Assembly: GCA_963776495.1 (NCBI GenBank)
Contig: CAVZMW010000003.1
Span: 196,326-260,325, forward strand
From: an uncultured Acidobacteriota bacterium
Lineage (GTDB): Bacteria > Acidobacteriota > Vicinamibacteria > Vicinamibacterales > Fen-181
Direction: 5' to 3'
Length of the DNA: 64,000 bases
Under the pieces are notes generated by a model. The model ran no database searches and was not told the origin of the DNA. It saw only the letters and a program-made list of their open reading frames with translations. A program made the translations under genes and the position numbers. How positions within the stretch are numbered: position 1 is the first letter of the stretch; every line of letters begins with the position of its first letter. Below, one piece after another: positions 4,090-48,190 of this stretch.

Positions 4090-5109
4090 CTACAGCAGTC
4101 TCTGCTCTCTCTCCGGCGCGCGCAGGCCGAAGTAGTCGTACGCCCGCGCCGTCGCCACCCGGCCGCGCGGCGTGCGGTCGAGGAAGCCGATCTGGAGCAG
4201 GTACGGCTCGAAGATGTCCTCGATCGCGTCCTTTTCCTCCGAGATGGCGGCCGCGATCGTGCCGAGGCCCACCGGCCCGCCGCCGAACTTGTCGACGATC
4301 GTGCGCAGCAGCCGGCGGTCGATCTCGTCGAGCCCGTGCTCGTCCACCTCGAGCATCTTCAATCCCGCGATTGCGGCGTCGAGGGTGATCTCGCCGTCGC
4401 CGCGCACCTGCGCGTAGTCGCGCACGCGGCGCAGCAGCCGGTTGGCCACGCGCGGCGTGCCCCGGGACCGGCGCGCGATCTCGTCGGCGGCACGAGGCTC
4501 GATGCTGACGCCGAGCAGGCGGGCCGACCGCCGGACGATCTCCTGCAGGTCCACCTCGCCGTAGAAGTCGAGGCGGTGGACGATGCCGAAGCGGCTGCGC
4601 AGCGGCGAGGTCAGCAGCCCGGCGCGCGTCGTCGATCCGATCAGGGTGAACTTGGGGACCGGCACCTTGATCGACCGCGCGCTCGGCCCCTGCCCGATCA
4701 TGATGTCGAGCTGGTAGTCCTCCATCGCGGGATAGAGGATCTCCTCGATGGTCGGCGACATCCGGTGGATCTCGTCGATGAAGAGCACCTCGCGCTCCTT
4801 GAGGTTGCTCAGCATCGCGGCCAGGTCGCCCGGCTTCTCGAGCACCGGCCCGGAGGTGGACCGCACGGGCACGCCCAGCTCGTTGCCGATGACGTAGGCG
4901 AGCGTGGTCTTGCCGAGGCCTGGCGGGCCGTAGAGCAGCACGTGGTCGAGGGCGTCGCCCCGCTGCTTGGCGGCGGTGATCGACACGACGAGGTTCTCGC
5001 GGATCCGCTCCTGCCCGACGTACTCGTCGAGCGTGCGCGGCCTGAGGCCGGCCTCGAACTGCGTGTCGTCGTCCACGCGGGACGGCGTGATGATCCGGGA
5101 ATCGCTCAT
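4090..5109 (-). CDS. ruvB: Holliday junction branch migration DNA helicase RuvB
   Basis: [43 protein letters not shown] motifs. Confidence 0.98.
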
Positions 5110-17288: not shown

Positions 17289-17405
17289 GGGCCGCCACGA
17301 GCGACGTCGAGGGGCAGGCGCGCCAGCCGCCGCGCCACTCTGACAAGGCCTGCATTAGCTCGCCGCACCCAAGCAACACCAGCGTTCACTGTCCCCAACG
17401 CGACC

Positions 17406-17525
17406 CGTCCCCCGCCACAGCTCAGAACGCCGGGCTGGAACGGCCTCAACACGGTTCGTCACAATCCGGCGTGGGCTCTCGATCGGAAACGATGCCTGGC
17501 GCGTCGTCCGCAGCCAGTCCCTCGC
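17406..17525. repeat. 120-bp dispersed repeat, copy 1 (copy 2 at 42954-43073)
   Basis: Ungapped hand alignment gives about 104/120 identities. Confidence 0.9.
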
Positions 17526-17782
17526 TGACCGGCTGGCCCAGGTCAAGCGGATCCAGCCGCCCCCCGCATGGAGTTCCTCGTGGGTGCGCAGTTGCCTCGG
17601 CGGGTGGCGTCCGGCTGACGGTACACCGCGATCGGAGGCAGAAACGACGAACATCCTGCGGGACGATCGTCAGAGGAGGCGGTAGATTCTGCGCGGGCCG
17701 TTCAGGGTGAGATGTTGTCTGGGCGCGAATCGTTGGATGCCCGAATGGAATGCCCGTTGCAGTAGCCAAGGTCGGAACGGAC

Positions 17783-18004
17783 ATGAAGAGAACAGCACCC
17801 ACACCGAGCACGCGCGGGAGGGCGAAGCGAGCGACAGGTTGCCCTGAGTTCGACGACGAGAAGCTCACCCCCAGCGAGCAGAACGCCCTCGACCACGACC
17901 TTCGCATCCTGGCGTCGTGGGGCATTCTCGGCTCTCAGCCGGCGAGACCAATCAGGGCTCGGTCGGTTCGCGCAGGCTCCGCTCGGCGGAAGTCCCGCCG
18001 GTGA
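17783..18004 (+). CDS. Small hypothetical protein, possibly antitoxin-like
   Basis: DDEKLTPSEQNALDHDLRILASWG loosely resembles DEALTPAERRAVAIGRRELASG of the 25203 ORF. Confidence 0.3.
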   Translation: MKRTAPTPSTRGRAKRATGCPEFDDEKLTPSEQNALDHDLRILASWGILGSQPARPIRARSVRAGSARRKSRR

Positions 18005-18243
18005 GCCGTCCGCCGCAGTCGGCGAATTCAGCCATTGGCCGGCGCACCGACAAAGCGGACCGTACGTGAGGCACGACCGCATCTCCGCCCCCCGCCTTGG
18101 GTCCGTTGCCAGTCATCAGTCGATCGCGCGGGACAGACTGACCACTGGCCACTATCGAGATGTGTTACCGTTAGCGCCCGGCCGAGGCTGACCGATGCGA
18201 GCGCAGCCGGCCGACATCTCAAAAAGGGGCATCGATACCGGGT

Positions 18244-18851
18244 GTCGTCTCGTCGAGGATTGCCGCAGTCTCACTTTGCGTATGGGCCGTGGCTGCCATC
18301 GCTGGCGCCCAGCAAGGGCCTCCCCCGGTCCCGTCAAGTGTGAGCGGCTTCGTCTTCGCTCCCGAGGTCAGGATCACGAGCGTCGATGGATCGCTCGGAG
18401 AGCTGGCGGGCTGGCACGGCGGCTGGCTGCGGCCGGACGGCGTCTTCCTGGGTGCTGGTGCCTACGCGCTCGTTGGGGCGGCGGCCGCGCGGTCATGTCT
18501 TACGGTGGGTTCGCGGCCGGTTTCGCGGCTCCGGTCAATGACCGGACGCGAATAGGCGTGCGGGGGCTCGTCGGAATCGGCCATGCGACCCTCTGGGTTC
18601 CCCCTCCTCCTTCTTCTGACGGGGATGCTTGCCTGACGAACCCGTTCCTGTGCGACTCCATAATCATCGCTGTCGCGGTAAACCCGTACTTCCTCGTGTT
18701 CGAGCCGCAGGTCACGGCCGAATCGCGTGTCGGCCGCCGTGTGTCGGTTGAAGTCGCGGTTGGTTACCGCGTGGCTGGAAGCGCGAGCGGTTACGAGAGC
18801 CGCCTGAGGGGAGCCTCCGGCAGCGCGGGCGTCAGGCTCGGACCCTTCTGA
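18244..18851 (+). pseudogene. Frameshifted outer-membrane beta-barrel-like protein
   Basis: Signal-like VVSSRIAAVSLCVWAVAAIAGAQQ and beta-strand N-half in the 18289 frame continue as SYGGFAAG...EPQV...VGYR...GSAGVRLGPF in the 18195 frame; one extra G in the G4 run at 18475-18478 restores the frame. Start uncertain. Confidence 0.6.
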
Positions 18852-19154
18852 GACTCGGAGACAGTGGGCGGCATTGGCGGCTCATACCGCATCGCCACTG
18901 CCCCCGAGCCGAACTCCAGCCGGCTCACGAGCTTCAAGTCGATACGCTTCGACCCGGTTCAGGGTGCTCGACACGACCCAAGAGTACGACCGATGGGGCC
19001 GCCTGGCAATCGTCGCCACGGCGGTCTCCCTCCCGTCTGGCAGCCGCGGCGATCTGGCGTCAGCACAGGCGCCAGGCCTGCGGAGATTCCAGCGCGTTCT
19101 CGCGCGTTCCGACCGGCACGTCGCGTGCATTGACGACGATGTACGATGCGAACC

Positions 19155-19721
19155 GTGGCACGGGTCCCGCCGTTCGATCGCCCGGCGACCTACGAGGATT
19201 TCGTCAAGCTCCCCGACAACCTGGTGGCCGAGATCGTGGGCGGGGAGTTGCACGCGTCGCCTCGCCCGGCGCCGCGCCACTCAGTCGCCGAGACGATCCT
19301 CGGTACCTTGATAGCCGGGCCGTTTCATCTCGGTCGCGGGGGCCCCGGCGGATGGTGGGACCTCCAGGAACCCGAACTGCACCTCGCGGCCGACGTCGTC
19401 GTGCCCGACTTCGCCGGCTGGAGGCGGGTCCGCATGCCCGCACCGCCAGAAACGGCTTACATCGACCTGGCGCCCGACTGGGTGTGCGAGATCCTCTCTC
19501 CCTCGACGGCCTCGCTCGACCGAACGCGGAAGCTCGCCATCTACGCGCGCGAGCGAGTCGGTCACGCCTGGCTGGTGGACCCGTTGGCCCGAACGCTCGA
19601 GGTCCTGCGACTCGAGGCCGACCATTGGGCGATCGTGTCCTCGCACGAGGGACGGGAGTCGGTCCGCGCGGAGCCGTTCGCGGCGGTCGAGCTGGGGCTA
19701 TCCGATCTGTGGGTCGATTAA
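19155..19721 (+). CDS. Uma2 family PD-(D/E)XK endonuclease, copy 1 (alt. ATG 19146)
   Basis: ATYEDF, AEIVGGEL, VVPDFAGW, PDWVCEILSPST, WLVDP; TACGAT box 7 nt before GTG. Confidence 0.92.
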   Translation: MARVPPFDRPATYEDFVKLPDNLVAEIVGGELHASPRPAPRHSVAETILGTLIAGPFHLGRGGPGGWWDLQEPELHLAADVVVPDFAGWRRVRMPAPPETAYIDLAPDWVCEILSPSTASLDRTRKLAIYARERVGHAWLVDPLARTLEVLRLEADHWAIVSSHEGRESVRAEPFAAVELGLSDLWVD

Positions 19722-19730
19722 CGACTGGCC

Positions 19731-19857
19731 CCCGATTCCTCAACCCGTTCACCGATTGATCCGCCCGTCTACCGATTGATCCGCCCGTCTACCGATTGAT
19801 CCGCCCGTCTACCGATTGATCCGCCCGTCTACCGATTGATCCGCCCGTCTACCGATT
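19731..19857 (+). repeat. 20-bp tandem satellite, 5 perfect copies of ACCGATTGATCCGCCCGTCT (19751-19850) plus degenerate ends
   Basis: Direct read; no unique spacers. Confidence 0.97.
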
Positions 19858-19875
19858 TCCGAATTCTCACTCCCC

Positions 19876-19917
19876 TTGACAATCGACAGGAGAACGTCTA
19901 GTCTCTTGTCGATTGTC
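19876..19917 (+). promoter_or_regulatory. sigma70 promoter TTGACA-N17-TAGTCT overlapped by a 16-bp-arm inverted repeat (putative PadR operator)
   Basis: -35 at 19876-19881, -10 at 19899-19904; arms GACAATCGACAGGAGA (19878-19893) and TCTCTTGTCGATTGTC (19902-19917) match 15/16. Confidence 0.75.
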
Positions 19918-19929
19918 TGGAGGTAAGCG

Positions 19930-20259
19930 ATGACGGCCGAGAAACGGGAGCTCCTGCAGGGGACGCTCGACCTGCTGGTGCTGAAGACCCTCGCCCTCGA
20001 GCCGATGCACGGCTGGGGCATCTCGCAGCGGATCCAGCAAATCTCGAAGGACGTGCTGTCGGTCACGCAGGGGTCTCTCTACCCCGCCCTCCACCGCCTG
20101 GAGGTGCAGCGGCTCATCGCGTCCGAGATGGGAACCTCCGAGAACAACCGCAAGGCGCGCTTCTACCGGTTGACGGCCGCGGGCCGAAAGCGCCTCGCGG
20201 CCGAGACGGAAAGCTGGGAGCGCCTGTCGCTCGCGGTGGCTCGGATCCTGGAGGCCTAG
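19930..20259 (+). CDS. PadR family regulator, acidobacterial type
   Basis: [41 protein letters not shown]. Confidence 0.95.
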
Positions 20260-20314
20260 GTTCCCGGCGCCGTTCGCGGTCGGGCGCGGTCCCGTTCGTT
20301 GGTCCGAGGTGGCG

Positions 20315-22927
20315 ATGCTGCTCGAACTGCTGGCTCGCATCACGGCACGATTTCAGCGGCGCGACGTCGAACGTGAGGTCGACGCCGAGCTCGCCTTTCA
20401 CCTGGAGATGCAGACCGAGGCGAACCGCGCGCGCGGGATGACGCCCGGCGACGCGCGCCGGGCGGCCCTTCAGTCTCTCGGCGGAGCCGACCAGGTCAAG
20501 GAGGCCGTACGCGACTCACGCGGCACCTGGATCGACTCCGTCTGGCAGGACGTTCGGTACGGCGTCCGTGTTCTTCGCAGCTCGCCCGCATACGCGCTCG
20601 GGGTCATCGTCACGCTCGGCCTCGGCATCGGCGCCACGACGGCCGTGTTCTCGGTCGCCGACGCCGCCGCGCTTCGCCCGCTTCCCTACTCGCGGCCCGA
20701 TCGCCTCTTCGGCATCCACAGCCGATCGACATCCAACGGCCAGGTCTCGATGGGTGTCAGCATCCGCGACTTCCTCGTGTGGCGCGATCACCAGAAGGAC
20801 TTCGGACGAGTCTCGCTGGTCGGCGGCGGGACCTACAACCTCGTCGAAGGCGAGCCCGAGCAACTCAGAGGCTGTGAAGTCACCGGCGACATCTTCGAGA
20901 CACTGGGCGCGAAGCCGCTGCTGGGCCGCGTGTTCGGCCGCGAGCACGAGGTCAGGGGCAACCACTTCGTCGCGGTCATCGGCTACGGGTTCTGGCAGCG
21001 GCGGTTCGGCGGCGACCCGCACATCGTCGGACGGCGGCTGCGCCTCGACGGAGGAGTGTACGAGGTCCTGGGCGTCATGCCGGCCGGATTCACGTTCCCG
21101 CCGAGCGTCCGTCCGTACGATTTGTGGACGCCCTTCTCGTTCGACGCGTCGGCCAGGGAAGACGTGTCACCAGGTCGTAGCGCCGTGCTTCGCTTGAAGG
21201 ACGGCGTGTCCCCGGCACAGGCCGACGCCAGGCTGCAGTCGCTTTCCGGCGGCCTGAAGCAGATCCCGGGCTTTGGCTGGCGGCCCTTTCTGCTGCCGCT
21301 GGACGAGATCGAGGTCGGAGACAGCAAGCGCTGGATGGCGATGCTCCTGGGCGCGGCAGCGTTCGTGCTGCTCATCGCGTGCGCGAACGTGGCCCACCTG
21401 ACGCTGTCCCGCACCTCCGGCCGTGCTCGTGAGCTCGCCGTGCGGCGGGCGCTCGGAGGCGGGCGCCTTCGCCTCGTCCGCCAACTGGCGACCGAGAGTC
21501 TTCTCTTGTCGTCGGTGGCGACCGGGGTCGGCGTCCTGGTGGCGTGGACGGGCGTGCGGATTTTGAGCGCGTCCGCTCCGCGCAGCCTCGCTCGCCTGGC
21601 GGACATTGCCGTCAACGGGCGCGTGCTGGCGTTTGCCGTCGCGGCAGGTCTCGTGACGGGGCTCCTTTCCGCGGTGCTTCCAGCGGTGCGCGGCGCCCGG
21701 GCCGACGTCGTGGGTGGACTCAAGGACGGCGGCCCGCTGGCCACCGGTGGACGCGTCGGGCGCCGCTTCCGGGAGGCGCTGGCCTTCAGCGAGGTGGCCC
21801 TGTCGTTCGTGCTGCTGGCCGGGGCCGCGCTCTTCATCGCGAGCTTCATCCGGCTGATGAGCGTCGAACCTGGTTTCGACGTGCGCAACCTCGTCGTGCT
21901 CGAGGTCGACGTCCCGAAAGACGTGACCGCCGGGGGGCGCAGCCTCGCCGATCTGGAAACGCTGCTCGACCGGGTGCGCCGGACGCGCGGCGTCACGGGT
22001 GCCGGCGTGATCGCGAGCGGCTGGATGTTCGGCGGCGGTCAAATGACCTATCCCGCGCACGAGCCCGGTTCGCCGCGTCCACAGGGCGAAACCGGGTCCA
22101 GCGACCTCACGTGGGTGACTCCAGGCTTCTTCCGTGTCCTGGGTGTTCCACTGGTTCGCGGCCGCGACCTGGACGACCACGATACGATGAGCGCGCCGCC
22201 GGTGATCCTCGTGAACCAGACCGCGGCCCGTCGTCACTGGGGCGGCCTGAATCCGCTGGGCCGACAGCTCGTGGTTCAAGATCGAACCTACGAGGTGGTG
22301 GGCGTCGTCGGCGACATCGCGCAGGTCGGCACCGACGCCGGACCACGCCCGGTGCTCTACATTCCGCTGGCGCAGATGAAGCGCCGGGCGTACGGCTCGT
22401 TCGTCGCGCGTCTCGACGGTCCGGTCAGTGACACGATGGCCGGCATGAGGCGCGCGGTCCACTCCGTCTGGCCGCAGCAGCCGATCTCGAGGGTCGCCAC
22501 GCTCGAAGATGGCATCTGGCGCAGCACGACCACTCGACGCTTCAACACGATCCTGATGGCCGTCTTCGGGATCCTGGCGGTCGTCATCGCCGTCTCGGGG
22601 TTGAACAGCGTCATGACCTGCTCGGTGGGCGAGCGACGTCGCGAGATGGCGATCCGTCTCGCCCTCGGCGCGCGGCGGGACCAGGTGATCAGGACTGTGC
22701 TCGGCCGAAGCGCGCTGATCACGCTGCTCGGCGTCGGGGCGGGCGGCGGAGCGGCGTGGGCGCTCGGCCGCTACGTGGAGAGCTACCTCTTCGAGATTCG
22801 GCCGCACGACCCGCGCGTCCTGGCCGCCGCGGCCCTGCTTCTTGCGCTGCTGGCGATCCTGGCGTGCTGGCCGCCGGCCCGGCGGGCGTCGAACACCGAT
22901 CCGGTGGCGGCGCTCAAGACCGAGTAA
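20315..22927 (+). CDS. ADOP-type duplicated ABC permease (MacB-PCD/FtsX x2) with N-terminal prefix domain
   Basis: EVDAELAFHLEMQ, QDVRYGVRVL, LLIACANVA, RELAVRRALG, RREMAIRLALGA; no ATPase gene adjacent. Confidence 0.92.
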   Translation: MLLELLARITARFQRRDVEREVDAELAFHLEMQTEANRARGMTPGDARRAALQSLGGADQVKEAVRDSRGTWIDSVWQDVRYGVRVLRSSPAYALGVIVTLGLGIGATTAVFSVADAAALRPLPYSRPDRLFGIHSRSTSNGQVSMGVSIRDFLVWRDHQKDFGRVSLVGGGTYNLVEGEPEQLRGCEVTGDIFETLGAKPLLGRVFGREHEVRGNHFVAVIGYGFWQRRFGGDPHIVGRRLRLDGGVYEVLGVMPAGFTFPPSVRPYDLWTPFSFDASAREDVSPGRSAVLRLKDGVSPAQADARLQSLSGGLKQIPGFGWRPFLLPLDEIEVGDSKRWMAMLLGAAAFVLLIACANVAHLTLSRTSGRARELAVRRALGGGRLRLVRQLATESLLLSSVATGVGVLVAWTGVRILSASAPRSLARLADIAVNGRVLAFAVAAGLVTGLLSAVLPAVRGARADVVGGLKDGGPLATGGRVGRRFREALAFSEVALSFVLLAGAALFIASFIRLMSVEPGFDVRNLVVLEVDVPKDVTAGGRSLADLETLLDRVRRTRGVTGAGVIASGWMFGGGQMTYPAHEPGSPRPQGETGSSDLTWVTPGFFRVLGVPLVRGRDLDDHDTMSAPPVILVNQTAARRHWGGLNPLGRQLVVQDRTYEVVGVVGDIAQVGTDAGPRPVLYIPLAQMKRRAYGSFVARLDGPVSDTMAGMRRAVHSVWPQQPISRVATLEDGIWRSTTTRRFNTILMAVFGILAVVIAVSGLNSVMTCSVGERRREMAIRLALGARRDQVIRTVLGRSALITLLGVGAGGGAAWALGRYVESYLFEIRPHDPRVLAAAALLLALLAILACWPPARRASNTDPVAALKTE

Positions 22928-23056
22928 CCGGAGGAGGGCCCGTCCTCCGTTTCCTCGACCCGGCCACCGACTTCGCAGTGCGAGCGTCGACCGGCTGGGC
23001 GGCCCCGATGCAAACGCGTCGCCAGGGCCGGGCGCTTCGCTCGCGAGCCGCTCCGT

Positions 23057-23098
23057 CCCTCGACCTTGCTCGGGAAGCCCTGAGCGCCAGTCGAAGGG
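23057..23098. repeat. REP-like palindromic element; relatives at 16584-16620 and 43093-43133
   Basis: The reverse complement CCCTTCGACTGGCGCTCAGGGCTTCCCGAGCAAGGTCGAGGG aligns with CCCTTCGACTCGCTCAGGGCCGCCCCGAGTCATGCCGAGGG at 43093. Confidence 0.65.
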
Positions 23099-23420
23099 CG
23101 CAGGCCGGGAAAGCCTCCTCGCGGTGCCTCGGTTTCCGGATCTCTCCGTCCGGCTGGCGCTATCCGCGCTCGATCGACCGCACGCGCTTCGCCGGGGAAA
23201 CGCGAGGCACGCGCTCGCCGGCCTCCGCTCGCCAAAGATCTGGCGAGCTACGGCCAGGCCGCGCCGAAGCTGCGCATCACACGATCCTGCGCAGCGGAGG
23301 CGGGTCGCTTTCCGTGTCGTGGCTGGACGGCCTGCTCCGAAGGCTCGCTCGCGACGCATCCCGTCCCTGTCGCCGCCACCTCCATCGTGGCCTCGTGTTC
23401 AGCCGACCACTGTTCCCGTC

Positions 23421-23800
23421 CTCCGATTCCTCTCGCCGTCCTCCGATTGATCTGTCCGTCTTCCGATTGATCTGTCCGTCTTCCGATTGATCTGCCCGTC
23501 TTCCGATTGAAATGCCCGTCTTCCGATTGATCTGCCCGTCTTCCGATTGATCTGCCCGTCTTCCGATTGATCTGTCCGTCCTCCGATTGATCCGCCCGTC
23601 CTCCGATTGATCCGCCCGTCCTCCGATTGATCCGCCCGTCCTCCGATTGATCCGCCCGTCCTCCGATTGATCCGCCCGTCCCCCGATTGATCCGCCCGTC
23701 CTCCGATTGATCCGCCCGTCCTCCGATTGATCCGCCCGTCCTCCGATTGATCCGCCCGTCCCCCGATTGATCCGCCCGTCCCCCAATTGTCGGTTCCGTC
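23421..23800 (+). repeat. 20-bp tandem satellite, 17 copies (23441-23780) of YYCCGATTGATCYGYCCGTC plus degenerate ends
   Basis: Direct read; same core unit and orientation as the array at 19751. Confidence 0.97.
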
Positions 23801-23806
23801 CCCCGG

Positions 23807-24937
23807 TCAGAGCCAGCGTCGCTTCCAAAACCACGCGACCATCCCCAGCGCCGTGACGACGCAGATCCCCCAGAAGACGGGGTAGCCCCACACCCATCCG
23901 ATCTCGGGGAAGTACTTGAAGTTCATGCCGTAGACGCCCGCGAGGAAGGTCAACGGGATGAAGATGGTGCCGATGATGGTCAGCACCTTCATGACCTCGT
24001 TGAGCCGCTGGCTCATCGCGCTCATGTAGGTCTCGGTGAGGCCCGTCGCCATTTCGCGGTAGGTCTCGACGATGTCGATGATCTGCACCGTGTGGTCGTA
24101 CACGTCGCGCATGTAGGTGCGGGTCGCGTCGCTCATGCACGCGTGCGGCTCGCGCTGCAGGGCGCTGATCACCTCCCGCATCGGCCACACCGCCCGGCGC
24201 AGCAGCAGGAGTTCGCGCTTGAGCGTGTGGATGTCCTGGATGGCGGCCGGCGTCGGCCGCTGCAGCACCTCGACCTCGGCGTCCTCCAGACGGTCGCCGT
24301 AGAGCTCGAGGATCGGGAAGCAGTGGTCCACGATCGCGTCGAGCAGGGAGTGGACCAGGAAGCTGGCGTCGTTGGCCCGGAGCCGCGACCCCGGCGTCCT
24401 GGCGCGCTGGCGGATCCCGTCCCAGACGTCGCCGCGGCTCTCCTGGAAGGTGAGCACGGTGCGGCGCCCGAGGAAGATGCTGATCTGCTCGCTGCGCAGG
24501 TGGCCGTCGGCGAGTTCGAGCATGCGCGCGATGATGAACAGCCGCGCCTGGAGCTCGCCGTCGTCCTCGTACGGCTCGACCTTCGGCCGATGGGTGACGT
24601 GGAGGAGGTCCTCGATGGCCAGGGGGTGCAGGTGGTACTTCTCGGCCAGCCTGCCGATGGCTTGCGGGTCGCTGAGACCGTCCACGTTGATCCAGCGCAC
24701 CGTGGCCCACTCGGGACGATGACCGGCGAGGAACGCGTCGAGATCCGTCACCTCCAGCACCTGGGACTGATGGGGCCCGTAGTCGATGCAGGTGATCGAG
24801 ACCGGCTCCTGCGTGCCCGGCATGCGCGCGAGCTCCGACAATTCGATCCCGGCGACGGCTCCGGGCTTCGACCGCTTGCGCAGCCGCGGCACGCCGAAAT
24901 GCGGCCGCGTCGGTTTCGGGTTTGCCCTCGTGGTCAT
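23807..24937 (-). CDS. corA: Magnesium/cobalt transporter CorA
   Basis: WINVDGL, HPLAIED, EQISIFLG, DVYDH, GVYGMNF signature. Confidence 0.96.
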   Translation of the reverse strand: MTTRANPKPTRPHFGVPRLRKRSKPGAVAGIELSELARMPGTQEPVSITCIDYGPHQSQVLEVTDLDAFLAGHRPEWATVRWINVDGLSDPQAIGRLAEKYHLHPLAIEDLLHVTHRPKVEPYEDDGELQARLFIIARMLELADGHLRSEQISIFLGRRTVLTFQESRGDVWDGIRQRARTPGSRLRANDASFLVHSLLDAIVDHCFPILELYGDRLEDAEVEVLQRPTPAAIQDIHTLKRELLLLRRAVWPMREVISALQREPHACMSDATRTYMRDVYDHTVQIIDIVETYREMATGLTETYMSAMSQRLNEVMKVLTIIGTIFIPLTFLAGVYGMNFKYFPEIGWVWGYPVFWGICVVTALGMVAWFWKRRWL

Positions 24938-41737: not shown

Positions 41738-42237
41738 GTGAGCGTCAACGACCGAGAGGCCGTACAAACGGCGAGGGCCCCCTGGTCATCCCAGTCCACC
41801 CTCATCCGTTGAGGGGCGCAACGGACGCTGTTGCCCCGACCTCAGGTCAGCCAACGCGTCTTCCACCGTCAGTCTCCGGCGGTCGAGGAGCGCCAGGCTG
41901 TGCTGTGAGCCAAGGGGGGCACGAGAGGGGGAACACCGGCTGAAGCGCAGTGTCCCCCCTCCGGTCAGCCGGTCCGATTGCAGCGGCGGTCTCCGCACGC
42001 ACAACGCCGACGCCCGTGCGGCCGGCTGCTTGTCGAGACAATCGGCAACATCAGCGGCTTCCGACTGCCTGTGGGTGCAGGGCAGTGAACATAACCGCCC
42101 GTTCTCAAACGTCGGCTACTGGGATTCGGGGCCGCGCCAGCCGCCGCGCCTTCCCGGCGGCACCGGCGCGGCCGCGGCCCGCGTGGCCAGCTTTGGTCGC
42201 CACTCCGGTTGCGCAGTCCCTACGAGGTCCTCGGGAA

Positions 42238-43347: not shown

Positions 43348-43546
43348 CGAATCGCGGCCCCTCGTCTTCTTGGAGATCCGGACCCGTTGTCAACCAGGCA
43401 GTCGTGGCCACCGCGCTCCCCCTCCCGACTGGCAGGCACGGCGATCTGGCGTCAGCACTGCCGCCCGGCCTGCGGAGATTCCGGCGAGTTCAGGCGCGTT
43501 CCGGCCGGCACGCGGCGTGCACGGACGACGATGTACAATGCGAGCC

Positions 43547-44113
43547 GTGGCACGGGTCCCGCCGTTCGATCGACCGGCGACCTATGACGATCTCGTCAAG
43601 CTCCCCGACAACCTGGTAGCCGAGATCGTGGACGGGGAACTGCACGCCTCCCCGCGGCCGGCGCCCCGCCATGCGGTGGCCGAGACGGCTGTCGGCATGC
43701 TGCTCGGCAATCCGTTCCATTTCGGTCGCGGCGGTCCTGGCGGCTGGTGGATTCTCGCAGAACCGGAGCTTCATCTCGGGTCCGACGTCCTCGTTCCCGA
43801 CTACGCGGGCTGGCGCCGAACTCGCATGCCCTCGATTCCAGATAAGGCCTACTTCGAGCTGGCGCCCGACTGGCTATGCGAGGTCATCTCGCCCTCGACG
43901 GCCTCGCTCGATCGCACGCGGAAGCTCGCCGCGTACGCGCGAGCGGGGGTGCCTCACGTCTGGCTGGTCGATCCGCTGGCGCGGACGCTCGAAGTGCTCC
44001 GCCTCGAAGCGGGCCGCTGGACCATCGTGGCCTCGCACGCGGGAAACGAGACGGTCCGCGCCGAGCCGTTCGGCGAGGTCGAGCTGGCGCTCGCGGATCT
44101 CTGGGTGGACTGA
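43547..44113 (+). CDS. Uma2 family endonuclease, copy 2 (alt. ATG 43538)
   Basis: Close paralogue of 19155-19721; TACAAT 7 nt before GTG. Confidence 0.92.
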   Translation: MARVPPFDRPATYDDLVKLPDNLVAEIVDGELHASPRPAPRHAVAETAVGMLLGNPFHFGRGGPGGWWILAEPELHLGSDVLVPDYAGWRRTRMPSIPDKAYFELAPDWLCEVISPSTASLDRTRKLAAYARAGVPHVWLVDPLARTLEVLRLEAGRWTIVASHAGNETVRAEPFGEVELALADLWVD

Positions 44114-44261
44114 CAGGCCCATGGCCCGAGGCTCAGGGCTCATGCCCGGAGGCTCAAGGCTCAGGGCCAGCCCGCTGTAGGCCGCGGTACGAGGATCCAA
44201 TCAGATAGCGCAGGGCTTCGGCCTGCACGGGGCGCGCCGAGAGAAGTCCGGGCCTGGGAGG

Positions 44262-45478: not shown

Positions 45479-45649
45479 CGTCGCTCCCACGACCTGGACT
45501 GCGGCCTCAGTCACCGGCCTTGCTGGCGCCGCAACCGGCTGCCGCGGAGTCGCTCCCGCGCCACGCGTCGCCGACCTTCGCCCCGCAGGTCCGTCTTAAT
45601 GCCCCAGGACTGTCGTGCAGGGCGTAGAATCCCACGCAAGGAGCGTCCC

Positions 45650-48190
45650 GTGACCCGGCCACTTGTCATCGAGCGTCACGTGGCCGACCTTCGGTGGGCC
45701 GTCAGGTCCCTGCGCCGCGCGCCCGCCTCGTCAGCCGTCGCGGTCCTCTCGCTGGCGCTCGGCATCGGCGCCAACACCGCCATCTTCTCGATGATCAACA
45801 CGCTGCTCCTGCGGACGCTCCCCGTCCCGTCGCCGCAGGAACTGCGGTTCGTGATGCAGCGTCCCGGCGACCGGCTCTCGTGGAACTACCCCGACTACCT
45901 GGCCTTCCGGGACGGCACCGCCGTTCCCCTGGCCGCCGCCTCGGGCGTGCAGCCGATCGGCGTGCAGGCATCGGAGAGCGCCACGGAGGTCGCCGAACTG
46001 GCGCCGAACCAGTTCGTCTCGGGCAACTACTTCGCCGTCATGGGGGTCACGCCGGAAGTTGGCCGGCTCTTTGGTGCCGCCGACGACCGCCAACTGGGGG
46101 CCGCACCCTACGCGGTCGTCGGGTACGACTACTGGCGCGCGCGCTTCGCGGGCGATCCGCGGGTCGTGGGCCGGACGATCCGCGTCAACGGCTATCCGCT
46201 CACGATCGTCGGCGTGGTCCGGCGCGGGTTCCGGGGAACCGACCCCACGAGATCGCCCGCCCTCTACGTGCCGATCGCGATGCACTCCGAGGTGAACCGC
46301 GTCCCGGCCGGAGTCTGGAACACGCGCCACTACTGGTGGATCCGCACCATCGGACGCGTGCCGGCCGGTGCGAACATCCCGTCGCTCGAGACGCGCCTCA
46401 CCAACATCGCCCGCGCGCAGGACGAGGCCGAGCGGCGCCAGGACCCGCGAACGGGCGCGCGCGGCAAGGCGGTGACCGTCGCGCTGATGCCGGGCGCGAG
46501 CGGTTACACCTATTCGCGCGGCATCCTCGAGAAGCCGCTGCTGGTCCTGATGGCCATGGTGGGGCTGGTGCTCCTCATCGCGTGCGCCAACGTCGCCAAC
46601 GTCCTGCTGGCGCGCGGGGCCGGGCGGGGGCGGGAGCTGGCGATTCGCATGGCGATGGGCGCCGGGCGCGGCCGGATCGCGTCGCAGCTCCTGACCGAAA
46701 GCCTGGTGATGTCGCTGGCCGGAGGCGTGGGCGGGATCCTGCTGGCCTGGTTCGGCGGCGGCGCCCTGCTCGCCCGGTTCGTTCCGCAGGCGGGATCGAC
46801 CCCGGTTGAGATCGACCTGGCTCCCGACCTGGCCGTGCTGGCCTTCACCACCGCGGTCGCCGTGGGGACCGGCATACTCGCGGGGCTCGCCCCGGCCTTC
46901 CAGGCATCCCGGTTCGTGCTCGTTCCGGCGCTGAAGACCGACACGGCCGGCGCGTCACGCGCGCTCGGGCGGCGGCTGCTGGTCGTCGGTCAGGTCGCGT
47001 TGTCGCTGCTGCTCGTCATCGGCGCGGCGCTCTTCGCGCGCAGTCTCGCGAATCTCGAGAGCCTCGACCCCGGCTTCGAGCGCGATCGCCTGGTCATCGC
47101 GTCCGCCAATCCGGAGAGTCTCGGCTACAAGGGGCAGCGGCTGCGCGACTTCTTCGAGCGGCTGCGCCAAGGTGTCGAACGTGTACCCGGGGTCAGGTCC
47201 GCCAGCCTCGCGGTCATCTCGCCCCTCGATGGCACGCGATGGAACGGTGACTTCGCAGTCGAAGGTGATAAGTCGCAGCAGGCCGACGAGCGGGTGGTCG
47301 ATTTCAACTCGGTGGGCCCACGCTTCTTCGAGACCATGGGCATCCCGGTGGTGGTCGGACGCGAGTTCCTGCCCGAGGACAGCCCGGCCGTCGTCCCCGA
47401 TCCGCGCGAACGCCCCTCGCGCGAACCCGTGCCCGAACTGCCGGGCCCGCGGCGCGCGATCGTCAACGAGAGCTTCGCCCGGAAATACCTCCCTGGCGGG
47501 AGTCCACTCGGCCGCCGCGTCTCGATGACCGAGACGTTCGACGCGGCCCGCGCCTACGAGGTCGTTGGTGTCGTCCGGGACGTGAGGTACTTCGGACTCA
47601 GAGAGAACCCCGAACCCATGGTCTACGTCCCGGTCTGGCGTGGCCTGACGTCGTCGCTGACGCTGGCCATACGGACGCGCGGGAGGGTCGCCGGCCTCGG
47701 CCAGTCGATTCGTTCGGTCCTGGCCGGCATCGACGTCGCCGTTCCGCTGCGGGACCTCGAGACGGGCGAAGAGCAGATCGACAGCGACATCGTCCAGGAC
47801 AGGCTCGTGGCCACGCTCGCCACCCTGTTCGGCGGACTGGCGCTCCTGCTCGCGGCCATCGGCCTCTACGGCGTGCTCGCGTACCTTGCCGCCCGCCGCA
47901 CCCGCGAAATCGGGATTCGCCTGGCGCTCGGCGCCGGCCGGTCGAGCGTTTTGTGGCTCGTGACGCGGGATGCGGTCGCGATGGTGGGAGTCGGGGCGGT
48001 GGTCGGCCTCGGGGCGGCCGTGGGCGCCGCGCGGCTCGTGGGGAGCCTGCTGTTCGGCCTCGACGCGCACGATCCGATGACGGCGGCCGTCGCGACGCTC
48101 GTGCTGCTGGCGGCCGCCGCGCTCGCCGTGCTCGTGCCCGCGCGCCGCGCGATGGCGATCGAACCCAGCCAGGCCCTGCGGGACGAGTGA
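45650..48190 (+). CDS. ADOP-type duplicated ABC permease, no adjacent PadR
   Basis: AAGGAG RBS before GTG 45650; SLALGIGANTAIFS, LLIACANVAN, RTREIGIRLALGA. Confidence 0.92.
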   Translation: MTRPLVIERHVADLRWAVRSLRRAPASSAVAVLSLALGIGANTAIFSMINTLLLRTLPVPSPQELRFVMQRPGDRLSWNYPDYLAFRDGTAVPLAAASGVQPIGVQASESATEVAELAPNQFVSGNYFAVMGVTPEVGRLFGAADDRQLGAAPYAVVGYDYWRARFAGDPRVVGRTIRVNGYPLTIVGVVRRGFRGTDPTRSPALYVPIAMHSEVNRVPAGVWNTRHYWWIRTIGRVPAGANIPSLETRLTNIARAQDEAERRQDPRTGARGKAVTVALMPGASGYTYSRGILEKPLLVLMAMVGLVLLIACANVANVLLARGAGRGRELAIRMAMGAGRGRIASQLLTESLVMSLAGGVGGILLAWFGGGALLARFVPQAGSTPVEIDLAPDLAVLAFTTAVAVGTGILAGLAPAFQASRFVLVPALKTDTAGASRALGRRLLVVGQVALSLLLVIGAALFARSLANLESLDPGFERDRLVIASANPESLGYKGQRLRDFFERLRQGVERVPGVRSASLAVISPLDGTRWNGDFAVEGDKSQQADERVVDFNSVGPRFFETMGIPVVVGREFLPEDSPAVVPDPRERPSREPVPELPGPRRAIVNESFARKYLPGGSPLGRRVSMTETFDAARAYEVVGVVRDVRYFGLRENPEPMVYVPVWRGLTSSLTLAIRTRGRVAGLGQSIRSVLAGIDVAVPLRDLETGEEQIDSDIVQDRLVATLATLFGGLALLLAAIGLYGVLAYLAARRTREIGIRLALGAGRSSVLWLVTRDAVAMVGVGAVVGLGAAVGAARLVGSLLFGLDAHDPMTAAVATLVLLAAAALAVLVPARRAMAIEPSQALRDE

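Follow-up and report, generated by a model that had tools for sequence, protein, structure and literature searches.

In the genome of an uncultured Acidobacteriota bacterium (Vicinamibacterales, Fen-181), two arrays of a 20-bp direct repeat lie on either side of a padR-permease operon, in the order Uma2-family gene, array 1, padR, permease gene, array 2, CorA gene. The question raised by this locus is what the arrays are and why they stand on both sides of the operon. The DNA analysed, called the window below, is a stretch of 64,000 nucleotides (contig CAVZMW010000003.1 of assembly GCA_963776495.1, positions 196,326 to 260,325 of the forward strand); coordinates are positions in the window unless a locus is named. 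The arrays are real, they are orthologous to arrays in related genomes, they turn over, and sequence has been exchanged between the two tracts. They are probably paralogous copies of one lineage-specific intergenic minisatellite, which is inherited vertically, expands by slippage and exchanges sequence between its copies. They are neither PadR sites nor arrays of the replication, partition or clustered regularly interspaced short palindromic repeat (CRISPR) kind, and they do not form the ends of a cassette that is mobile at present.

Array 1 (19725..19864, + strand) is composed of a leader of the CCGATTCCTC type, one variant unit, five perfect units of CCGTCTACCGATTGATCCGC, and a partial tail, CCGATTTCCGAAT. 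Array 2 (23416..23795, + strand) is composed of a CCGATTCCTC leader, seven units of the GATCTG type, ten units of the GATCCGC type, and a tail (CCAATTGTCGGTT). Tandem Repeats Finder reports a period of 20 for both: 5.3 copies with 100% matches at 19751-19857, and 18.8 copies with 94% matches at 23415-23789. The copy number of array 2, 17-18, is as read from one assembly. The 18-nt core CCGATTGATCCGCCCGTC, with three mismatches or fewer, occurs 22 times in the window, five times upstream and 17 times downstream of the operon. All of these copies are on the + strand and are spaced by exactly 20 bp within the arrays. The number expected by shuffling is 0.23, and none of 100 shuffles attained 22. 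These counts bear out an earlier note on this DNA, made from the sequence alone, which had described five upstream and 17 downstream units with a common core in the same orientation. No additional unit of the 20-bp family was found in the remaining 60 kb of the window.

Both arrays are opened by the same degenerate unit, CCGATTCCTC, at 19733-19742 and 23423-23432, as the earlier note had also recorded. In register, array 1 runs from the leader CTGGCCCCCGATTCCTCAAC to the tail CCGTCTACCGATTTCCGAAT, which lies 19 nt short of the -35 hexamer of padR; array 2 runs from the leader CCGTCCTCCGATTCCTCTCG to the tail CCGTCCCCCAATTGTCGGTT, adjoining the CorA stop codon. The leaders in common, together with position-specific leaders conserved in relatives, support the common origin that had been proposed for the two arrays. 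The polarity seen previously in array 2 is also evident: the units of its left part (23456-23575) read CCGTCTTCCGATTGATCTG(T/C), and those of its right part (23576-23775) read CCGTCC(T/C)CCGATTGATCCGC. The 18-nt core of the array 1 block is identical to that of the right block of array 2. The final eight units of array 2 form an exact 80-bp (four-unit) duplication; this higher-order duplication and the perfect blocks indicate recent expansion in place. Both arrays are head to tail and spacer-free. Their unit length (within 10-100 bp), their non-coding position and a copy number that varies among close relatives are those of a minisatellite, or variable-number tandem repeat.

Three independent assemblies have units of this family at matching sites. 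Two of them, L214 and L215, are metagenome contigs with the order Uma2-padR-permease-CorA, whose permease orthologues are 87% and 91% identical to that of the window; the third, L224, is a locus whose PadR is identical to that of L214. Units at the 20-bp phase lie in both intergenic gaps, Uma2-padR and permease-CorA, in these relatives, and therefore the family is not an assembly artefact; perfect array pieces in soil metatranscriptome contigs speak against an artefact too. The numbers of units upstream and downstream are 5 and 17 in the window, 4 and 3 in L214, and about 2 plus 5 decayed and 4 in L215. The upstream array of L214 (1270-1357) is ACCCGTCCATCGATTGACAN in four copies, and units of a CCTC type are found upstream of padR in L224, despite a PadR and promoter identical to those of L214. 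The gene-proximal leader and tail units are kept between genomes, while the copy number and the dominant expanded unit differ. Two degenerate units overlooked in the earlier note, immediately 3' of the permease stop codon (CCGTCCTCCGTTTCCTCGAC and CCGGCCACCGACTTCGCAGT; 22936..22975, + strand), belong to the conserved part: they form the permease-proximal end of the downstream tract and are homologous to the first units after the permease in L214 and L215. The junction of array 1 with the padR promoter is also kept, the array ending one unit upstream of the -35 box. The claim that the left array abuts this box is approximately right: its final, partial unit stops at 19857, and the TTGACA sequence begins at 19877. 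Among 43 distinct units compared, CCGTCC-N-CCGATT is constant and the other half is free. Occurrence at the same sites, the small number of units (2-5) and the differing dominant variants in relatives all argue that each of the two sites had its array ancestrally, and that the arrays are passed on vertically and turn over fast.

Exchange between the two tracts is indicated by a non-repeat insert of about 450 bp, the S block (22966..23415, + strand), which lies within decayed units. The S block is downstream of the permease gene in the window, but between Uma2 and padR in L215, with decayed units around both copies. The identity between the two copies is 89.4% over 341 aligned positions, as compared with 89.75% for the operon. 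This change of side at operon-level identity points to recombination between the arrays. In addition, downstream-type units are found upstream of padR in L224. Taken together with the identical upstream and downstream cores of the window and the upstream difference between L214 and L224, this shows that the two direct tracts have repeatedly undergone recombination or conversion with each other. The S block itself does not seem to be an independently mobile repeat: no further copy is present in the window or among 231 loci other than L215 (L214 is without it), and the homology with L215 fades into unit-like sequence with no sharp termini.

Inverted repeats in nested arrangement are present in the S block, as are two insertions specific to the window, at about 23054-23098 and 23217-23303. 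Its core, 23099-23216, is 97.5% identical to L215, as compared with about 90% for the adjacent coding DNA. The core folds as one long imperfect hairpin (on the + strand the minimum free energy structure has a frequency of 0.30; on the - strand z is -2.0). Soil metatranscriptome contigs match pieces of 35-41 nt from this core (23141-23181), and one soil metagenome shows a raised depth over it. The sequence may represent a structured RNA or the core of a palindromic repeat. It should be mentioned that one soil-metagenome contig joins 22937 to 23594, that is, the end of the permease gene to the array with the S block skipped, which fits a co-occurring relative whose downstream gap is of the L214/L215 type and is without this block.

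A scan of 185,579 species genomes (GTDB, one genome per species) for the exact 18-nt core gave 35 loci, which is near the number roughly estimated for chance (about 17 in random sequence of that size, and more at high GC). Only one of the 35, L004 in an Acidobacteriota metagenome-assembled genome (MAG) of a sister species, is a true array; it has six units, some of them identical at 20 of 20 positions. This array sits at a convergent-gene junction, where one neighbouring gene encodes an unrelated secreted protein and the other an amidohydrolase. A metagenome scan gave nothing relevant, with one unrelated two-unit match; no similarity to the arrays was found in plasmid, phage and viral-contig collections, and no match in known RNA families. 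The convergent gap of L004 (L004:4868-5198) holds four arrays in series: a 20-bp array of GCCAATCGG in four copies, a 20-bp array of CCGATTGATC in six, an 8-bp array of TCGCAAAA in five, and a 7-bp array of ACTTCTT in six. Where the neighbouring array in L004 appeared to be inverted, the region folds no better than shuffles (z 0.67) and has no inverted repeats.

These results can be accommodated by the following history. The unit is a 20-bp sequence with a conserved half, CCGTCC-N-CCGATT, and a variable half. A tract of 2-5 units was already present in both gaps in the ancestor from which four or more related soil Vicinamibacterales-like genomes descend, and the tracts have been inherited vertically along with the operon. 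Replication slippage or unequal sister-strand exchange might have added or removed one or several units at once, and the outcome in this genome would be the five perfect units upstream and the 17 units downstream. Homologous recombination or gene conversion between the tracts would keep them alike, and seems to have moved the block of about 450 bp across the operon. The most plausible effect in cis would be that the C-rich, unstructured sense transcript past each stop codon acts as a Rho-loading or insulating tract.

Several points weigh against a plain minisatellite. Persistence at both sites over four lineages is unexpected for useless bacterial DNA. The conserved half-unit is recognisable even in strongly decayed units, and a 20/20 unit occurs at the non-orthologous L004; this could mean selection on the sequence, for example as a binding site. 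The change of side of the S block could stem from differential loss of an ancestral duplicate. As for the effect in cis, a role like that of a Rho-utilization (rut) site is not general, and the heptamer array after the second Uma2 paralogue of the window is G-rich on its sense strand.

The arrays belong to a known class of bacterial intergenic tandem repeats. Bacterial long simple-sequence repeats (LSSRs) and the cyanobacterial short tandemly repeated repetitive (STRR) heptamers, with units of 5-11 nt, are hypervariable, intergenic and lineage-specific, and often lie just past gene ends. The present arrays, like the heptamer arrays of this clade, share these properties, but the unit is 20 nt instead of 5-11 nt, there is no inverted partner or hairpin, and the positions are orthologously conserved. 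The closest described parallel is BrickBuilt of Porphyromonas gingivalis (Klein et al. 2015, PMC4596501), a 23-nt spacer-less intergenic minisatellite and MITE (miniature inverted-repeat transposable element) that has distinct leader and tail subunits and carries promoters; its termini bear small inverted repeats, and each genome holds 19 dispersed copies of it. A spacer-less unit of about 20 nt, a strictly intergenic position, leader and tail subunits, variable copy number and restriction to few species are common to both. The only end complementarity noted for array 2 is 7 nt (23401-23407 with about 23789-23795), and the copies seen are two linked ones in the 64 kb of the window and, in the sister genome, those of a single locus. 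The tandem direct repeats of Borgs (Schoelmerich et al. 2022, bioRxiv 10.1101/2022.05.18.492195) are A-enriched, pervasive and of independent origin at each site, and those that lie between genes have been suggested to act as regulatory RNA. Perfect tandem direct repeats with partial flanking units, recent formation, fast evolution and a compositional bias of one strand are found here too, but the arrays are C-rich and low in copy number, and one ancestral unit is common to the two sites.

As they stand, the arrays are a well documented, ordinary kind of bacterial repeat and fit the repeat-rich intergenic style of the clade. The window and its relatives are rich in arrays of 7-8 nt, and comparable sites in the relatives are often occupied by intergenic arrays of unrelated sequence, such as (TCTTCTA)n directly after CorA in L137. 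In Vicinamibacterales-like soil Acidobacteria, which are abundant and little studied, many of the gaps between genes appear to be filled by tandem arrays that evolve fast. The present locus is a tractable example, in that one family at two linked sites can be traced through four related genomes and shows how arrays 3.6 kb apart expand, evolve in concert and exchange sequence. If the arrays act as terminators, insulators or substrates for rearrangement, this would bear on the organisation of transcription units and on the growth of the very large padR-permease families.

The genes of the locus are as follows. The Uma2-family gene, a putative restriction endonuclease gene (19146..19721, + strand; Pfam PF05685, E 1.2e-22), ends a few bases before array 1, and its synteny is kept in L214 and L215. 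The padR gene (19930..20259, + strand; Pfam PF03551, E 4.8e-20) encodes a PadR-family regulator of 109 aa. It is followed by the gene for an ADOP-type duplicated MacB/FtsX permease of 872 aa (20309..22927, + strand), in which Pfam PF12704 and PF02687 each match two stretches. The CorA magnesium-transporter gene (23807..24937, - strand; Pfam PF01544, E 1.4e-69) is convergent with the permease gene. A second Uma2 paralogue (77% aa identity; window 43538-44168), with a heptamer array of the GGCTCAG type directly 3' of it, is followed by a permease paralogue at 45599-48190.

One alternative is that the arrays are functional 3'-end elements, transcribed as the tail of the gene upstream of each (Uma2 or the permease gene). 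Their C-rich, G-poor, structure-free repeat RNA would load Rho, so that transcription is terminated or insulated ahead of the padR promoter and ahead of a collision with the convergent CorA transcript, with an efficiency that would be tuned by copy number. We consider this possible but on the whole unlikely. Its basis is the composition and position of the arrays. The C/G ratio of the sense strand is 2.13-2.25 (2.13 for array 2), and these are the longest C>G tracts in the 64-kb window. The + strand RNA of array 2 is less structured than all of 100 shuffles (z +4.58). Both arrays, and the L004 array as well, start within about 10-15 nt of the stop codon of the gene on the C-rich strand, and no intrinsic terminator was found in either gap, including that between the convergent permease and CorA genes. 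Furthermore, perfect array pieces of 41-50 nt are present in soil metatranscriptome contigs, which are unstranded and to which DNA carry-over may contribute. The sense RNA thus bears the signature of a Rho-loading site (C>G and unstructured for at least 70-80 nt past a stop codon), and a Rho-loading or insulator role is possible on this composition. It resembles rut regions in that more than 80 nt of RNA past a stop codon are rich in C, poor in G and unstructured. However, the conserved 13-nt half-unit and the exact period are needless for a rut site, 2-5 units suffice in relatives, and other arrays of this genome and its relatives differ in composition, some being G-rich on the sense strand. 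To our knowledge, none of the rut sites described is a tandem repeat built from a conserved unit, as the arrays are.

Folding bears on two further points. Both strands of array 2 fold worse than shuffles, which excludes a foldback or hairpin element. A hairpin with 18-nt arms that are 83% complementary (CGGAGGAGGG and CCGTCCTCCG; 22921-22957) spans the permease stop codon; it is built with the first repeat unit and is followed by TTT, and could be a weak terminator.

Another alternative, which seems quite unlikely, starts from the position of the arrays on both sides of the operon. The direct arrays would be portable homology, or recombinase-free handles: by exchange between them or with empty tracts, the padR-permease cassette would loop out and reinsert in another register or another array, duplicate or amplify, drop out, or relocate, and would thus behave as a translocatable unit. 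If true, this would explain both the change of side of the S block and an unrelated, equally bracketed cassette at L216. The downstream-type units upstream of padR in L224 are consistent with it, as is the sister species, where an "empty" array of the identical unit lies elsewhere and no close permease homologue was found in the MAG of L004 and L133. The L216 cassette, with a 65% identical permease orthologue and different neighbours, belongs to an independent lineage and lies within a 195-bp direct repeat unrelated to the 20-bp family. Such relocation would be compatible with a C-rich repeat RNA that possibly serves, to judge from its composition, as a Rho-loading pad tunable by copy number.

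On the other hand, the cassette occupies the same Uma2-CorA site in the window, L214 and L215, and gene conversion or differential loss accounts for the change of side without excision. None of 80 CorA loci has Uma2, padR or the permease, or an empty Uma2-array-CorA site. No recombinase gene is present near the cassette among the open reading frames (ORFs) and Pfam matches at the locus. Different sites, empty sites and a recombinase, which would mark a mobile cassette, are thus not seen, and the cassette stands at one conserved site in three genomes. The soil-metagenome contigs (Logan), which are short, shallow and of low power, show no deletion or circle joints. The idea that flanking arrays could drive excision or amplification is partly supported, as regards recombination between the arrays at an evolutionary scale; the cassette was not seen in an excised, empty or amplified form.

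Comparison with the sister species also places one border away from the arrays. L133, which is from the same MAG as L004 and encodes the best relative of the CorA protein (87% aa identity), matches window 29704-23806 and 17289-16666 with a nt identity of about 90%, but has 4.3 kb of unrelated genes between these flanks. Therefore 17290..23805 is a variable island, which contains decayed genes, Uma2, array 1, padR, the permease gene, the S block and array 2; L214 and L215 have the island. Array 2 terminates exactly at the synteny break with L133, at the CorA stop codon. The left border, however, is at 17290 and not at array 1. Arrays are lacking at the two other permease paralogues of the window. 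Where permease orthologues share 73-76% identity, a convergent gene follows after 33 nt and there is no array, and the array of the sister species is at an unrelated junction with no operon. A link of the 20-bp family to cassette boundaries in general is not supported.

The repeat that brackets the L216 cassette was located at L216:710-1000 and L216:4085-4500, with copies 84.6% identical. The downstream copy also holds thirteen 18-bp units (GCACCCCCGGCACCTGTG). The repeat begins with (GTGCTGGAG)n, the approximate reverse complement of the 18-bp unit.

A third alternative takes the units as phased sites for PadR, or for a nucleoid- or partition-type protein, that would coat the flanks and loop or insulate the operon. 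This is very unlikely, although CCGTCC-N-CCGATT is kept at a strict 20-bp phase even in decayed units, an identical unit occurs at another locus in the sister species, and in every relative array 1 stops one unit short of the -35 box on its upstream side. The padR promoter (19877..19917, + strand) has the -35 sequence TTGACA at 19877-19882 and a weak -10 sequence, TAGTCT, at 19900-19905. An inverted repeat, GACAATCGACAGGAGA and TCTCTTGTCGATTGTC, overlaps it (19878-19917, 16 nt, 94% complementary). This repeat is kept in L214, L215, L216 and L224, and in the paralogue L225 as TCGACAGG...CCTGTCGA, and is likely to be the PadR operator. The consensus of this putative operator, an inverted repeat defined from six loci, is TCGACAGG...CYTGTCGA. 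Its core is absent from the array units, and the similarity of the main units of the window to the operator was matched by 705-716 of 2000 shuffles (35%), which rejects the units as PadR sites or decoys. Judged on these comparisons, binding of PadR to the units is unlikely. In addition, unit variants change quickly between strains with identical PadR, no rep, par or DNA-binding gene other than padR is nearby, and the plasmid, phage and viral-contig collections gave no match; the earlier reading of the arrays as iteron, partition or nucleoid-protein sites is not supported.

Direct repeats of about 20 bp phased at roughly two helical turns do recall plasmid iterons, sopC and parC, and the period of 20 with 5 and 17 units is within the 17-22 bp of iterons. 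However, iterons need an adjacent Rep gene, an AT-rich region and DnaA boxes, and partition centromeres of the parS, parC or sopC type go with parA/parB or parM/parR. The neighbours here are only Uma2, PadR, the MacB/FtsX permease and CorA, none of the flanking ORFs is a rep or par gene, and the locus is chromosomal, 69% GC, with no AT-rich stretch and no plasmid or phage similarity, so that the iteron and partition readings fail. CRISPR, which needs unique spacers of similar length between repeats, was correctly set aside by the earlier note, there being no spacers, and a coding function is rejected since the 20-nt period is not a multiple of three and any ORF that runs across the arrays lacks a Pfam match and overlaps a real gene.

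Some other repeats were met in the course of the comparison. A dispersed intergenic element of about 95 bp, 74-85% identical between copies, is common to this genome and the sister species. Its copies are at window 42034-42132, L004:1180-1277, 2781-2873 and 4764-4859, and L133:14365-14441; one of those in L004 directly precedes the repeat arrays. A scan with a two-core pattern mostly matched a palindromic element, GCCGATTGATCG-N8-GCCGATTGATCGG, which is present in dozens of copies in MAGs of Ktedonobacteraceae and other Chloroflexota (L036-L114, for example L060:1905-1990). It often occurs as inverted pairs after a conserved GTAGG, has the look of a repetitive extragenic palindrome or MITE, and is unrelated to the arrays. 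Finally, a Binatia MAG (L097:7957-7996) has two or more 20-bp tandem units that have 16 nt (CACCGATTGATCCGCC) in common with the unit of the window, the locus being cut at its end, and a Qipengyuania genome (L052:1943-1982) has CCGATTGATCTTGCCCGTGG twice. These two likenesses may be due to chance or may reflect a wider motif.

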